Origin: Acutalibacteraceae bacterium
GTDB lineage: Bacteria > Bacillota > Clostridia > Oscillospirales > Acutalibacteraceae
Length of the DNA: 64,000 bases
Reading direction: 5' to 3'
Assembly (NCBI GenBank): GCA_045537555.1
Contig: JAZSPR010000050.1
Coordinates: forward strand, 5,010-69,009
Shown here piece by piece: positions 49,582 through 59,724 of the stretch (position 1 is the stretch's first letter; every line of letters begins with the position of its first letter). Position numbers and translations under genes: made by a program. Below the pieces are notes generated by a model, which did not search any database, was not told where the DNA came from, and worked only from the letters and a program-made list of their open reading frames with translations.

Positions 49582-49610
49582 TTGACAATATATATATATA
49601 ATGTTATAAT
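49582..49610 (+). promoter_or_regulatory. Near-consensus sigma-A promoter of the radical SAM operon
   Basis: TTGACA (49582-49587), a 17-nt spacer, then TATAAT (49605-49610) preceded by TGt (extended -10). Confidence 0.7.
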
Positions 49611-49650
49611 TATATATTGAAAATATATGCGCAAACGGAGGTTGACGGAT

Positions 49651-51570
49651 ATGAAAAATGTATATTTTGTTCAGGCGGATGTGTCGGCGTGTTCAGGCAC
49701 AAAAAACTCATATCTGCCCTATACTGCGGGTATTCTTATTGCATCTGCGTGGACAAGTCAGGTTGTACGTGATAACTTCTGTTTCAAAGGTTTTCTTTTC
49801 CTTCGTGAAGATGTTAAAAAAGTTGTTGAACATCTTGAAAATCCTGCATATATCGGCTTTTCAAATTATTGCTGGAGTACGGAATATAATAAATGTCTGG
49901 CAGAAGCCGTAAAAGAAAAATTCCCCGATTGTGTAATCAATTTCGGCGGTCATAATGTTCCCGATAATTTCAGCTTTCTTGAAGATTATCCGTATATTGA
50001 TGTTCTCAGCCACGGTGAAGGTGAAGAAACAATAACATCATTGCTTGAAGCGATTGCTCTCGGTACTTCGTTTGATGAAGTCAATAACATTTCATTCAGA
50101 AAGCCTGACGGCTCTTTTGTGAGAACTCCCACAAAGCTTCAGACAACACTTGATTATCCGTCACCTTATCTTGAGGGATGGTTTGACGATATAATTGCAG
50201 AGCATCCCGAAATCACATTCAATGCAATTCTTGAAACAAGCAGGGGATGTCCCAATCAGTGTGCTTATTGTGACTGGGGACTTCTGAAATCAAAAACAAG
50301 ACTTTTCCCGATTGAGCGCATAAAAAAAGAAATACAGTGGATGTCTGATAATAAAATTGCTTTCGTATGGGGCGCTGATGCGAATTTCGGTATGTTTAAA
50401 AGGGATATTGAAATTGCAAAAGAATTAGCCGCCGTAAAAAAGAAGACGGGTTATCCCGAAAGAATGCGTATGAACTACGCAAAGAACAATTTTGAAACAG
50501 TTTTTGAAATTGTGAAGATATTCAAAGAATGTGAATTCGACAGAATCGGTGCAACACTTTCTTTCCAGAGCCTTTCCCCCGTTGTGCTTGAAAATATAGG
50601 CAGAAAAAACACTTCTCTTGATTTTTATAAAAACCTTCTTACAAAATATAATACAGAGAATATGAAGACCTATTCGGAGCTTATTTTAGGGCTTCCCGGT
50701 GAAACATACGAAAGCTTTATAAGAGGAATAGGCACGTTGTTTGAAATCGGTCAGCATTTTGTTTTTGCCGTTTACGGATGTATTCTTCTTCCCAATTCAT
50801 TGATGGGGCAGAAGGATTATATCGAAAAACACGGTATAAAAAGTGTAAAATCAGAAATAGTCAGGTTCCATGCAGATGCAGGTGAATTTGCCATTCCCGA
50901 ATATAATGACCTTATTGTTGAAACAAACACAATGAGCCGTGAAATGTGGGTAAGAGCTACGGCATTTTACTATATGACTATGGCTTTTCACGGTAACGGT
51001 CTGCTTCGTGCATTCGGTATTTATCTGTTTTATGAAAAAAATATACCTTATGAAAAGTTCTATGATGCAGCAATTGATTATTTTGAAAATAATCCCGACC
51101 TCAATATATCAAAGCTCTATTTTGATGTAAAAAGACATGCTGATGAGCTGTCCCGCGGTATTGAAACGGGTAAAATGGTTTTCAGCAAATGTGAAGATGT
51201 TGTGTGGGATGACCATGAATATGTTGTTCTTCATGTGCTTGAGGATACGGATAAATTCTATGATGAAATGCTGCCGTTCCTGAGTTCTTTCAATATTGAG
51301 AAAGATATTTTTGAAGATTTGCTCACTTATCAGAAGAACATCCTCAGAAAGCCTTCCGATGCTGAGAAAACGGTCAGTCTCAATTACGATATTCACACAT
51401 TCCTTAAAAATATTTATGTTAATGTCGTGAATCCTCTTGAAAAGAAAAAACATACACTCGTTATGCGTGACACAAATGTTTATGATAACTGGCGTGATTT
51501 CGGTAAGTTCGTTATATGGTACGGCAGAATGGGCTGGTCATCGTATAAAGATGATGTAACTCAAATTTAA
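49651..51570 (+). CDS. Cobalamin-binding-domain (class B type) radical SAM enzyme, paralogue 1
   Basis: The track ORF starts at 49627. ATG 49651 follows GGAGG. It has an N-terminal B12-type Rossmann region (FGGHNVP, HGEGEE), a radical SAM core ETSRGCPNQCAYCDWG (CX3CX2C), ELILGLPGETYESF and an unassigned ~250-aa C-terminal region. Confidence 0.8.
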   Translation: MKNVYFVQADVSACSGTKNSYLPYTAGILIASAWTSQVVRDNFCFKGFLFLREDVKKVVEHLENPAYIGFSNYCWSTEYNKCLAEAVKEKFPDCVINFGGHNVPDNFSFLEDYPYIDVLSHGEGEETITSLLEAIALGTSFDEVNNISFRKPDGSFVRTPTKLQTTLDYPSPYLEGWFDDIIAEHPEITFNAILETSRGCPNQCAYCDWGLLKSKTRLFPIERIKKEIQWMSDNKIAFVWGADANFGMFKRDIEIAKELAAVKKKTGYPERMRMNYAKNNFETVFEIVKIFKECEFDRIGATLSFQSLSPVVLENIGRKNTSLDFYKNLLTKYNTENMKTYSELILGLPGETYESFIRGIGTLFEIGQHFVFAVYGCILLPNSLMGQKDYIEKHGIKSVKSEIVRFHADAGEFAIPEYNDLIVETNTMSREMWVRATAFYYMTMAFHGNGLLRAFGIYLFYEKNIPYEKFYDAAIDYFENNPDLNISKLYFDVKRHADELSRGIETGKMVFSKCEDVVWDDHEYVVLHVLEDTDKFYDEMLPFLSSFNIEKDIFEDLLTYQKNILRKPSDAEKTVSLNYDIHTFLKNIYVNVVNPLEKKKHTLVMRDTNVYDNWRDFGKFVIWYGRMGWSSYKDDVTQI

Positions 51571-57974: not shown

Positions 57975-57999
57975 CTGACCTGAATCAGGAGTGATTTTA

Positions 58000-59724
58000 A
58001 TGTACAGAAGTGAATATCCCCGTCCGTCATTTGTCCGTGAAAATTGGTTAAATCTTAACGGAAAATGGGATTTTGAAATCGGAAAAGATAATGTTTTTGA
58101 TAAATGTATTGAAGTACCTTTCTGTCCCGAAAGCGAATTGTCGGGAATCGGTTACAAGGACTTTATGTATGACTTGCAGTACAGAAAATATGTTGATATA
58201 ACATATGAACAGTTACAGGGAAGTGTTATCATCAATTTCGGTGCTGTTGACTATGAATGCACACTCTTTGTCAACGGCAAAAAAGCAGGTTACCATAATG
58301 GCGGTTATATTTCATTCTCATTTGATATAACAGCATATCTTACAGAGGGTAAAAATGAACTTATCGTCTCAGTAAAGGATGATACAAAGCACCCTGCAAT
58401 TCCTATGGGTAAGCAGTCTGACAGATTCGAGAGTTACGGTTGCAGTTACACAAGAACAACGGGTATATGGCAGACCGTGTGGCTTGAATTCACAGGTAAA
58501 ACATACATTACGGAAAGAAAAATCACGGCAACTCCCGAAACTAAGACTGTTGTATTTGAGGGTAAACTCAATAATTCGGAGCTTTGCGAAGTTACTGCTG
58601 AAATTTTCTATAAAAATGATAAAGTTGCAGAGTGTAAGACTGTTGCAGAGGGCAGAATCAATATGACAGCCGTTATTGAAGGTGATGTAAAGCTCTGGGA
58701 TGTACTTGCACCTGAAATTTATGATATTGTTCTCACCGTAAAGAGTAACGGGAAAGTATCGGACTTTGTAAAGACATATACAGGTTTCAGAAGTATTGAA
58801 CTTAAAGACGGTAAATTCCTTCTTAACGGAAAATCAGTTTTCCTTCGTCAGATTCTCGATCAGGGGTTCCACCCCGACGGAATTTACACATTCCCCACAA
58901 TTGAAGATATCGAAAAGGATATTGATATTGCCATTGACCTCGGATTCAACGGAGCCCGACCCCACGAAAAGATTTTCGAGGAATATTATTTCTACTATGC
59001 CGATATGAAGGGCTATCTCGTATGGGGCGAATTCCCTAACTGGGGGTGCTGTCTTGACAGTAAAAACTGTCCTGAAGGTCTCGAAAACTTCCTTTCCGAA
59101 TGGAAAGAAGAGCTTGTAAGAGACTATAATCACCCGTCAATCATCGGTTGGTGTCCTCTTAACGAAACCTGGGAAGGCAAGCACTTCTGTGATGCTGTTT
59201 CTCAGAAAGCCATTTATGATGCAACAAAGGAATATGACCCGATAAGACCTGTTGTCGGTGCGAGCGGCGGTTTCCTTTATGTTACCGATATTGACGATTA
59301 TCACGACTATTCGCACACGGCAGAAGAGCTTATTTCTCATGTTCATAACCATAAAAACGGCACTTATGAGCACGAAGTTGTTTATAAGAAGAACAAGGAA
59401 GAGAATGCATGTCTTCTCACTCGAGATGATATGGAAGGACTTCCGATTTTCTGCTCGGAATACGGCGGAATCTCATTCAATATCGGTGAAAATGCATGGG
59501 GCTATGTAAATGAAAGCAATGAAGATGATTTTGTTGCACATTACATTTCAGATACAACAGCAATAATGCAGAGCGACTGTATGGGTATGTGCTATACCCA
59601 GCTTACTGACGTTGAACAGGAGCAGAACGGTCTTGTGACTTATGCAAGAGAGCACAAATTCTCCGAAAATGCACGAAAGAAAATCCGTGAATGCAATATG
59701 CAGAAAGCGAAGATTGAACAATAA
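58000..59724 (+). CDS. GH2 family glycoside hydrolase (no signal peptide)
   Basis: The track ORF starts at 57991. ATG 58000 follows CAGGAG. It has YPRPSFVRENWLNLNGKWDFE, NHPSIIGWCPLNE (acid/base region) and FCSEYGG (nucleophile region). Confidence 0.8.
   Translation: MYRSEYPRPSFVRENWLNLNGKWDFEIGKDNVFDKCIEVPFCPESELSGIGYKDFMYDLQYRKYVDITYEQLQGSVIINFGAVDYECTLFVNGKKAGYHNGGYISFSFDITAYLTEGKNELIVSVKDDTKHPAIPMGKQSDRFESYGCSYTRTTGIWQTVWLEFTGKTYITERKITATPETKTVVFEGKLNNSELCEVTAEIFYKNDKVAECKTVAEGRINMTAVIEGDVKLWDVLAPEIYDIVLTVKSNGKVSDFVKTYTGFRSIELKDGKFLLNGKSVFLRQILDQGFHPDGIYTFPTIEDIEKDIDIAIDLGFNGARPHEKIFEEYYFYYADMKGYLVWGEFPNWGCCLDSKNCPEGLENFLSEWKEELVRDYNHPSIIGWCPLNETWEGKHFCDAVSQKAIYDATKEYDPIRPVVGASGGFLYVTDIDDYHDYSHTAEELISHVHNHKNGTYEHEVVYKKNKEENACLLTRDDMEGLPIFCSEYGGISFNIGENAWGYVNESNEDDFVAHYISDTTAIMQSDCMGMCYTQLTDVEQEQNGLVTYAREHKFSENARKKIRECNMQKAKIEQ

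Follow-up and report, generated by a model that had tools for sequence, protein, structure and literature searches.

Radical S-adenosylmethionine (SAM) methylases that depend on cobalamin belong to the small number of enzymes able to make C-C bonds at unactivated carbons, and nearly all of those characterized belong to antibiotic or cofactor pathways. The carbapenem C6 sequential methylases of Streptomyces, TokK and ThnK, combine a Rossmann cobalamin domain, a radical SAM barrel and a TokK-specific C-terminal domain, and ThnK is encoded in one cluster with ThnL and ThnP, which are cobalamin radical SAM enzymes as well. CysS and KedN5, which convert a methoxy group to ethoxy, isopropoxy and tert-butoxy groups, fall in the same sequence and structure group. 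PoyB and PoyC C-methylate proteusins, and the proteusin (polytheonamide) clusters hold several cobalamin radical SAM methylases per operon. TokK, ThnK and CysS are all sequential C-methylases, and their group can build branched alkyl groups carbon by carbon (bioRxiv 10.1101/2021.07.10.451909). The gentamicin enzymes GenK and GenD1, cobalamin radical SAM C-methylases with a CX4CX2C cluster motif, set a precedent in that a B12 radical SAM enzyme methylates the unactivated carbons of a sugar (PMC4340712).

Here, we describe a cassette of five genes that encode three TokK/CysS-type proteins (rsA, rsB, and rsC), a small protein of the glycosyltransferase (GT) A fold (GT-A), and a radical SAM protein of a second type (rsD). 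The cassette lies in a 64,000-nucleotide (nt) stretch of DNA from an Acutalibacteraceae bacterium (contig JAZSPR010000050.1); this whole stretch is referred to below as the window, coordinates are positions within it unless a related locus is named, and the cassette genes are all on the plus strand. A preliminary description had read the region as a single coupled unit of six genes, the five above and a glycoside hydrolase gene (GH2), with no recognizable pathway context, and had proposed either multi-site C-methylation of a glycoconjugate or lipid, or the tailoring of a ribosomal peptide. Our results indicate that the conserved unit consists of the five genes rsA, rsB, rsC, GT-A, and rsD, and that these are under purifying selection.

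A conserved cassette of TokK/CysS-type proteins

A scan based on rsD, with one genome per GTDB species, recovered 35 loci, to which further metagenome contigs were added; gene clustering covered 42 loci, and a count of sugar genes covered 40 related loci. All 35 loci belong to metagenome-assembled genomes labelled Acutalibacteraceae, Oscillospiraceae, Ruminococcaceae or Clostridia, and many of the isolate names suggest the ruminant gut. The order rsA-(rsB)-rsC-(rsD')-GT-A-rsD recurs in these 35 species-level genomes and in the further metagenome contigs. The paralogue rsD' is retained at most loci and is missing from the sub-clade to which the window belongs, and rsB is found elsewhere or on the opposite strand in other genomes. 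Only three families are co-conserved, each at 37-40 of the 42 loci: TokK-like (105 members at 40 loci), rsD-like (70 members at 38 loci), and GT-A-like (38 members at 37 loci). The flanks vary by lineage (CitMHS/GH77, HlyIII, ROK-MurB-RapZ-WhiA, and others), while the internal order of the cassette stays constant. Within the reduced sub-clade of the window, the ratio of nonsynonymous to synonymous substitution rates (dN/dS) is 0.03-0.14 for all five core genes.

The recurring order, the varying flanks and the dN/dS values support the earlier view that class B radical SAM proteins and the GT2-like protein form a functional unit, and recurrence of the order in 35 species contradicts a chance juxtaposition of the five core genes. 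A fortuitous assembly of six genes, or a decaying remnant without function, is extremely improbable as an explanation. It could draw on the loss of rsD' from the window's version and on the absence of sugar genes in cis, but it is opposed by the gene order, by intact catalytic motifs, by dN/dS values that are low in all five genes even in the reduced sub-clade, and by a perfect promoter and coupled start codons. The six-gene unit first drawn did not hold as such, GH2 standing outside the conserved core.

Judged by motifs and predicted fold, rsA, rsB, and rsC are full-length members of the TokK/CysS group, for which cobalamin binding and methyl transfer are predicted. The blocks FGGH, (G/N)EGEE, RGCPxxCxYC(D/E)W, ELILGLPGETYESF, and W(Y/F)G(R/K), earlier described as shared by the three paralogues, were all found in the translations. 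A B12-type N-terminal domain and a radical SAM core had also been assigned to each, and Pfam bears this out: Radical_SAM scores above its cutoff in rsA, rsB, rsC, and rsD, and B12-binding does so in rsB and rsC (49.7 bits in rsC). The B12-binding match of rsA is below the cutoff (16.8 bits), despite which its cobalamin domain superposes on that of TokK in an AlphaFold2 (AF2) model. In a sequence search of the PDB, rsA matched TokK with E=2.4e-92 and CysS with E=7e-42, and the HMMER alignment pairs residues 20-570 of rsA with residues 21-590 of TokK. Over about 570 amino acids (aa), identity to TokK is 33% for rsA, 32% for rsB, and 31% for rsC. Given that CysS is itself about 29% identical to TokK or ThnK (bioRxiv 10.1101/2021.07.10.451909), rsA, rsB, and rsC stand no farther from TokK than CysS does.

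Structural comparison gave a similar picture. The AF2 model of rsA (predicted local distance difference test score, pLDDT, 91.5) aligned with TokK in Foldseek over 677 columns and all three domains, with template modeling (TM) scores of 0.90 normalized to the query (TMq) and 0.87 normalized to the target (TMt). TM-scores with CysS were 0.74-0.76, and those of the next matches, OxsB and TsrM, were below 0.5. The C-terminal region of about 250 aa, which the preliminary description could not assign, can thus be assigned after all, since the whole-chain TM-score of 0.90 identifies it, at the level of the model, as a TokK-type third domain. In TokK, this domain contributes to the substrate channel (bioRxiv 10.1101/2021.07.10.451909). 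As in TokK and ThnK, the cluster motif is CX3CX2C, and its cysteines are kept in 101 of 101 TokK-like sequences from the fetched loci. Equivalents of the TokK tryptophans W76, which lies below the corrin, and W215, which lies in the active site after the cluster motif, are present in 101/101 and 99/101 of these sequences, respectively; both tryptophans are common to TokK, ThnK, and CysS (bioRxiv 10.1101/2021.07.10.451909).

As for whether these proteins fall inside an already characterized family, they do so by fold, within the TokK/CysS group, but not at the level of curated families. The best NCBIfam family for all three is KedN5 (NF033712), at 226-250 bits (250 bits for rsB) against a cutoff of 700, and carbapenem biosynthesis genes are found neither in the window nor at any other locus. 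Failing the curated cutoff and lacking the carbapenem context, rsA, rsB, and rsC form a separate, new subfamily related to KedN5. The cassette further differs from the TokK/ThnK systems in its host, a gut Firmicute, and in its partners, GT-A and, in relatives, nucleoside diphosphate (NDP)-sugar genes. It differs from CysS in that the latter acts on a pantetheinylated aminobenzoate (according to PDB titles) in a nonribosomal peptide synthetase (NRPS) context and performs all of its steps with one enzyme, whereas the cassette loci hold two to five specialized paralogues.

The paralogues are 37-41% identical to one another (rsB and rsC are 38% and 41% identical to rsA, respectively), and in a neighbor-joining tree of the 101 sequences, A, B, and C form separate clades, alongside additional clades. 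By these sequence comparisons, rsA, rsB, and rsC are old orthologue groups rather than recent duplicates. The clades also differ at the position of TokK Arg280, an essential residue that contacts the carboxylate of the carbapenam substrate (bioRxiv 10.1101/2021.07.10.451909). This position is Arg in 34/34 members of clade A, the only clade to retain it, Gln in 18/18 members of clade B and the B-like sequences, and Lys in 34/34 members of clade C. Such clade-specific residues suggest three distinct jobs, at other sites or at other stages of alkylation, and not redundancy.

The Arg retained in rsA also bears on the possibility that the product is a secondary metabolite able to diffuse, for instance an alkylated compound resembling an aminoglycoside, a nucleoside or a beta-lactam. 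In that case, rsA, rsB, and rsC would assemble an alkyl side chain in the manner of TokK or ThnK, and GT-A would glycosylate the scaffold. In addition to this residue, every one of the closest characterized relatives (TokK, CysS, and the KedN5 family) has its origin in an antibiotic pathway, and a constant internal order at a shifting chromosomal position is reminiscent of a gene-cluster island. We nevertheless consider this explanation unlikely. At no locus are genes for a scaffold (carbapenem synthase, NRPS or polyketide synthase, or aminocyclitol), an exporter, resistance or a regulator co-conserved with the cassette. The A and C trees are broadly alike and flanks are common within sub-clades, suggesting mostly vertical descent, and the base composition of the cassette equals that of its surroundings. 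Moreover, the accessory genes described below are of a cell-surface glycosylation type, with a GtrB/PgfS-like GT2 and membrane proteins of 10 and 7 transmembrane segments beside giant surface proteins.

The fourth radical SAM protein, rsD, is built differently, as had been recognized: it matches only Radical_SAM in Pfam and carries an N-terminal extension of about 200 aa. Its cluster motif is CX4CX2C and not the canonical CX3CX2C, and it lies within the block GCYWGKCxFCD in 70 of 70 rsD-family members (L005-L042). The likeness to GenK and GenD1 is drawn at the level of this motif spacing and of class B membership, and these two enzymes belong to an actinobacterial antibiotic cluster and act on a pseudotrisaccharide. 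Residues 217-371 of rsD align locally to the Rossmann-to-cluster region of rsA, rsB, and rsC, and the rsD' of L005, a paralogue of 612 aa, has a near-cutoff B12-binding match (E=3e-7); rsD is itself probably cobalamin-binding. Its best NCBIfam match is TIGR03975, a family of C-methyltransferases in the maturation of peptides that are made on the ribosome and modified after translation (RiPPs), at 129.9 bits, below the cutoff of 281.85.

The 244-aa product of the remaining core gene matches Glycos_transf_2 in Pfam (E=2.4e-10; 41 bits against a cutoff of 23.3), in agreement with its description as a GT2-like transferase. The top Foldseek matches of its AF2 model (pLDDT 89) are ArnC and DPMS (TMq 0.70-0.80, E of about 1e-11 to 1e-12, probability 1.00), followed by glucosyl-3-phosphoglycerate synthase, and its weak best sequence matches in the PDB are likewise DPMS and ArnC. 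All three of these enzymes transfer from a nucleotide-sugar donor to a phosphate-bearing acceptor. In contrast with ArnC, DPMS, and GtrB, with which it shares the GT-A fold, the 244-aa protein belongs to a small and separate family (175 matches in an indexed search; 126 clusters at 50% with E<=1e-30) that lacks the canonical DXD motif, and it has no C-terminal transmembrane helices itself. Family alignments give a reduced consensus, LLP-(A/G/S)-D-(M/L), in which D97 is the sole invariant Asp, and a conserved C-terminal motif, R-x-EG-x-S-x-NS. Some family members are fusions, either with a cupin of the WxcM/Polysacc_synt_C type or with an LPG_synthase_TM domain, and a 37%-identical relative on an environmental contig overlaps a short-chain dehydrogenase/reductase (SDR) of the GDP-mannose-dehydratase type, with a STELLO GT and a Wzy_C protein adjoining. 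Judging from these fusions and neighbors, the GT-A family belongs to glycan biosynthesis.

The affinity of GT-A for lipid-phosphate sugar transferases would also suit a membrane lipid target, in which methyl branches are added to a polyprenyl or acyl chain, or to a glycolipid aglycone, and GT-A attaches a head-group sugar. The fusion of one family member to LPG_synthase_TM points the same way, the long channel that accommodates pantetheine-linked substrates in TokK and CysS could take an acyl or lipid carrier, and the weaker NCBIfam matches include the lipid-modifying B12 radical SAM families HpnJ, HpnR, and ladderane-type. These matches, however, lie far below cutoffs and reflect generic class B similarity. 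Genes for fatty-acid, isoprenoid or glycerolipid biosynthesis are linked at no locus, the linked genes being instead sugar-nucleotide genes, and we regard a lipid target as improbable.

Sugar genes in related loci and a proposed role

The preliminary description had found no pathway context for the operon, and this holds for the window but not for its relatives, where sugar genes are interleaved with the radical SAM genes. At 10 of the 40 loci, genes for sugar activation or lipid-linked transfer lie inside the fetched flanks. In deeper-branching lineages, the cassette is also larger. An example is L036, where 15 genes run on one strand in the order SDR (of the 4,6-dehydratase or epimerase type), cupin, three TokK-like genes, rsD', GT-A, rsD, a 490-aa B12 radical SAM protein, two TokK-like genes, RmlD-like reductase, HddA-like heptose-7-phosphate kinase, and two proteins with 10 and 7 transmembrane segments. 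GmhA is present besides the radical SAM genes in L033 and L035, an HddC-GmhB fusion in L037 and L029, and HddA, a cupin, and a reductase in L018 and L030. Across these extended relatives, there are best-match homologues, below NCBIfam cutoffs, of the enzymes for all four NDP-heptose steps and of those that make 6-deoxyheptoses. A similar set is known from the modification of GDP-heptose for the Campylobacter jejuni capsule, which involves GmhA, HddA, GmhB, and HddC together with a dehydratase, epimerases, and reductases (covered in a review, PMC10680097). The extended relatives have best-match homologues of all four activation steps, as well as an SDR, a cupin, and an RmlD-like reductase. The C. 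jejuni pathways differ in that their genes are absent from the window. We saw no mention of radical SAM enzymes for them, and among the 20 best-ranked of 95 papers none joined heptose to two of radical SAM, cobalamin or C-methyl chemistry.

In L029, an open reading frame (ORF) of 1286 aa (16632-20492, minus strand) carries two B12-binding and two Radical_SAM domains. It resembles a tandem fusion of two TokK-like enzymes, which could be natural or a frameshift artefact of sequencing or assembly.

A second architecture (L001-L004, L050, and L053) joins rsA and TokK-like, GT-A-like, and HpnJ-like radical SAM genes to sugar genes of another kind, namely a kinase, a sugar-1-phosphate nucleotidyltransferase, a PgfS/ArnC-like GT2 with two transmembrane helices, the 10- and 7-segment membrane proteins, and a giant surface protein. 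The GT2 of L003, a separate protein of 310 aa, has two such segments. The kinase passes the MtnK (methylthioribose kinase) model, at 315.6 bits against a cutoff of 275, and lies directly upstream of the nucleotidyltransferase gene in L003 (6702-8589, minus strand) and also in L001, L002, and L004. The pair suggests, from sequence, nucleotide-activated methylthioribose or 5-deoxyribose. Both of these sugars derive from by-products of SAM chemistry.

The membrane proteins at the ends of the extended cassettes form two families, one of about 420 aa with 10 transmembrane segments and one of about 240 aa with 7 (L036 19379-21410, plus strand; L003 180-1427, minus strand; L004 656-1366, minus strand). 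Neither had a match in Pfam, NCBIfam or PDB sequences, and both are candidates for new types of glycan transferase or flippase.

Of the two earlier hypotheses, multi-site C-methylation of a glycoconjugate fits these data best, given the interleaving of sugar genes at related loci. We put at about even the chance that the cassette C-methylates, step by step, a sugar that is linked to a nucleotide or to a lipid phosphate and bound for the cell surface. The proposal that the five genes are the core for tailoring in a sugar pathway peculiar to Acutalibacteraceae-type gut Clostridia is, in our judgment, just as evenly balanced. C-methylation by rsA, rsB, and rsC is proposed by analogy with the established chemistry of the TokK/CysS group, and a sugar is proposed as the target given that the same radical SAM families are interleaved with NDP-sugar and lipid-linked glycosylation genes in related loci. 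An activated sugar would be supplied by genes outside the window, in relatives by the NDP-heptose/6-deoxyheptose pathway or by the kinase and nucleotidyltransferase. The soluble ArnC/DPMS-like GT-A may then transfer or hold this sugar, probably on polyprenyl-phosphate or a similar phosphate-bearing acceptor. In rsA, rsB, and rsC, a 5'-deoxyadenosyl radical would take a hydrogen from an unactivated carbon, to which the methyl group of methylcobalamin would pass, so that each turnover would use one SAM to generate the radical and a second to re-methylate cob(I)alamin. Each of the three enzymes might work at another position or at another stage of alkyl-chain growth, and rsD might add a further methylation or a rearrangement. 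The product, a sugar C-alkylated more than once, would finally be carried by a glycan or glycoprotein of the cell surface. We infer the substrate, the number and sites of the methylations, the order of the steps, the lipid carrier, and the final acceptor.

Several points weigh against a surface sugar as the target. The bare core is all that is found in 30 of the 40 loci, so the link to a substrate depends on a gene association shown by lineages that branch more deeply and are in the minority, and the heptose-pathway matches in L018, L029, L030, L033, L035, L036, and L037 are best matches that lie below NCBIfam cutoffs. In the window, tblastn over all 64 kb with the heptose, kinase, nucleotidyltransferase, GtrB-like, and membrane proteins of the extended loci gave no match, which bears out the earlier statement that sugar-nucleotide genes are lacking, and the operon there contains no sugar-nucleotide, flippase-coupled or GT-C gene. 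For the proposed chemistry, the key evidence on the substrate comes from relatives and not from the window. Known substrates of TokK and CysS are pantetheine-linked small molecules rather than sugars, and the cobalamin radical SAM class also performs chemistry other than methylation, for example thioether formation (PMC13331322). In the GT-A family, the first Asp of the DXD motif is swapped for Pro, Ser, Gly or Ala, and no transmembrane segment, and hence no membrane anchor, is predicted in the 244-aa protein. The reduced motif and the missing anchor imply that GT-A may not be a conventional polyprenyl-phosphate transferase. However, human-type DPM1 also has no transmembrane segment, and its absence from GT-A therefore does not exclude activity.

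If a surface sugar is the target, what is new is probably a form of cobalamin radical SAM tailoring with unusually many specialized paralogues. More tentatively, and with less confidence than in the proposals above, arrays of two to nine specialized cobalamin radical SAM enzymes in gut Acutalibacteraceae might add methyl groups singly to a heptose-derived or other activated sugar, giving branched or chain-extended "higher" sugars at the surface. The carbon skeletons of carbohydrates would then be diversified by a route with no described counterpart, and the synthesis of surface glycans would depend heavily on B12. We found no publication on this cassette in Clostridia, or on a link between TokK-type enzymes and the pathways of heptose or nucleotide sugars, in the literature searched, which omits some journals, and the layout matched no described system there.

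A conserved and strongly selected cassette with multiple TokK-like enzymes in abundant uncultured Clostridia of the gut and rumen points to another use of this chemistry than antibiotic or cofactor synthesis, and the links to sugar activation and lipid-linked glycosylation suggest the remodeling of a cell-surface sugar. If this is correct, gut microbes would carry new sugar structures on their surfaces, with possible effects on recognition by phages, the immune system, and lectins. B12 availability could then have one more way to shape the physiology of gut bacteria. The cassette would also offer a natural set of paralogues for studying how TokK-type enzymes choose the site and the number of methylations.

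Transcript boundaries and neighboring genes

The six packed plus-strand ORFs of the preliminary description were confirmed between 49627 and 59724 (Table 1). Its two start/stop overlaps were likewise found, ATGA at 53507-53510 between rsB and rsC (4 nt) and TAATG at 56164-56168 between GT-A and rsD (1 nt), and the other neighbors in the series lie 8, 2, and 16 nt apart. The promoter, earlier called near-consensus, is the sole complete match in a 13-kb scan. The rsA start is the ATG at 49651, which follows GGAGG, and not position 49627; close homologues are likewise 639 aa long. The leader of about 40 nt between the promoter and this ATG is too short for a riboswitch, and no Rfam or tRNA match was found anywhere in the window. 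A hairpin marks the upstream boundary of the cassette, and another, which spans the GH2 stop codon, is likely the transcript end; a second, bidirectional hairpin follows at 59893-59926. The true start of GH2 is probably the ATG at 58000, judged by comparison with its orthologue in L043.

Table 1. Features of the cassette and its boundaries in the window
Feature	Position	Strand	Remarks
Intrinsic-terminator-like hairpin	49542..49561	+	8-bp GC-rich stem then T-run; closes the transcript of the upstream 44-aa ORF
Sigma-70-type promoter	49582..49610	+	TTGACA, 17-nt spacer, TG-extended TATAAT; 12/12 consensus match
rsA, TokK/CysS-type cobalamin radical SAM protein (predicted), 639 aa	49651..51570	+	Orthologue group A
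rsB, TokK-type cobalamin radical SAM protein (predicted), 643 aa	51579..53510	+	Orthologue group B
rsC, TokK-type cobalamin radical SAM protein (predicted), 640 aa	53507..55429	+	Orthologue group C
GT-A (GT2) protein, soluble, 244 aa	55432..56166	+	Glycos_transf_2; orthologues share the same start Met
rsD, second radical SAM type, 602 aa	56166..57974	+	Radical_SAM
GH2 glycoside hydrolase	57991..59724	+	Four GH2 Pfam domains; signal peptide absent
Hairpin spanning the GH2 stop codon	59719..59753	+	15-bp stem; terminator scan

Neither tight packing nor the coupling of starts defines a pathway, and both GH2 and the small ORF upstream of the cassette belong to the neighborhood. GH2 is the signal-less last gene that had been described, and in the window it is probably co-transcribed with rsD. 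Its position directly behind rsD is, however, peculiar to the window: no GH2 lies behind rsD in 33 of the 35 genome loci, L008 has none, and in L009 a minus-strand gene intervenes between rsD and GH2. A GH2 that is 71% identical occurs in L043 downstream of the same block of WYL/MFS_2, Metallophos, PI-PLC-like, and small-ORF genes as in the window, with no radical SAM genes there. GH2 was therefore rejected as a pathway member, since only the window and L009 have it and the L043 orthologue occurs without the cassette, and the data support chance adjacency to rsD.

The upstream ORF of 44 aa had been put forward as a candidate substrate. It is a real and conserved small gene whose product has a high content of Val, Ile, and Leu, with 34 database clusters of homologues. 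Having its own strong ribosome-binding site, a promoter-like site and a terminator, it forms a separate transcript. Its family ends the MFS_2-Metallophos-PI-PLC-like operon in L043, L044, and L045, with no cassette nearby, and its adjacency to the cassette was seen in the window's sub-clade only. As it travels with the upstream operon in three cassette-free genomes, the ORF was discarded as a radical SAM substrate. A search for alternative precursor peptides, covering the 500 nt upstream of rsA at all loci and 137 clustered intergenic ORFs of 40-89 aa, revealed none common beyond the window's sub-clade.

These results bear directly on RiPP tailoring, in which a ribosomal peptide, encoded by the 44-aa ORF or elsewhere, would be C-methylated by the radical SAM enzymes and glycosylated by GT-A. 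In its favor are the reality, conservation, and composition of the small ORF, the typical occurrence of B12 radical SAM methylase arrays in proteusin clusters, and TIGR03975 as the best NCBIfam family of rsD. The score of the latter (130 bits) is nevertheless under half of the cutoff. The lack of any small ORF co-conserved across the loci and the presence of the 44-aa family without the cassette remove the sole candidate for a precursor. In addition, neither a RiPP recognition element (RRE) nor a leader peptidase nor an ABC exporter is conserved among the loci. The cassette differs from proteusin clusters in being without a precursor peptide, RRE, protease, and exporter. RiPP tailoring, the second of the two earlier hypotheses, is thus not supported and appears very unlikely.

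The joint occurrence of GH2 and the small ORF in L043 without the cassette indicates that, in the window's lineage, the cassette lies between two parts of an older carbohydrate-use neighborhood. The upstream part is a block in which a WYL/WCX regulator gene (42793-43788, minus strand) is divergent from a plus-strand series (43948-49524) encoding MFS_2, Metallophos, and PI-PLC-X-like proteins and a hydrophobic/acidic small protein of 44-50 aa. This block occurs independently of the cassette in at least seven other Clostridia contigs and may serve to take up and dephosphorylate a compound of the phospho-sugar or phospho-inositol kind. An insert (47660-49255, plus strand) separates the PI-PLC-like gene from the 44-aa ORF and encodes a lipoprotein-like redoxin, a membrane peptide of 47 aa with CLECIGIG at its end (48259-48402), and a Fer4_5 polyferredoxin with three transmembrane segments. 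The insert is restricted to the window's sub-clade (L005, L008, L020, and partly L009), and a role of its products as dedicated electron donors was not supported, since they accompany the cassette in that sub-clade only.

GtrA proteins are associated with lipid-phosphate-sugar translocation, and a gene of this family (61249-61803, minus strand) converges on the operon together with an Fe-alcohol dehydrogenase gene (60013-61224, minus strand). The same pair, at 91% and 98% identity, lies right after rsD in L042, without GH2, and this adjacency is limited to the sub-clade.

The rest of the window looks like the ordinary chromosome of a spore-forming, plant-glycan-degrading Firmicute. Upstream, an ORF of 1841 aa (18332-23857, plus strand) is followed by an 836-aa MFS_2 transporter (24011-26521, plus strand), whose C-terminal 400 residues or so have no Pfam match. 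The region from 26535 to 42401 encodes GH125, GH43, DpaA-like, RecJ, and RelA/SpoT proteins, a metallo-beta-lactamase-fold protein, HemZ (526 bits, above the cutoff), a MurJ/Polysacc_synt flippase-like protein, and MazG, and an alpha-L-arabinofuranosidase gene lies downstream of the cassette at 61923-63401.

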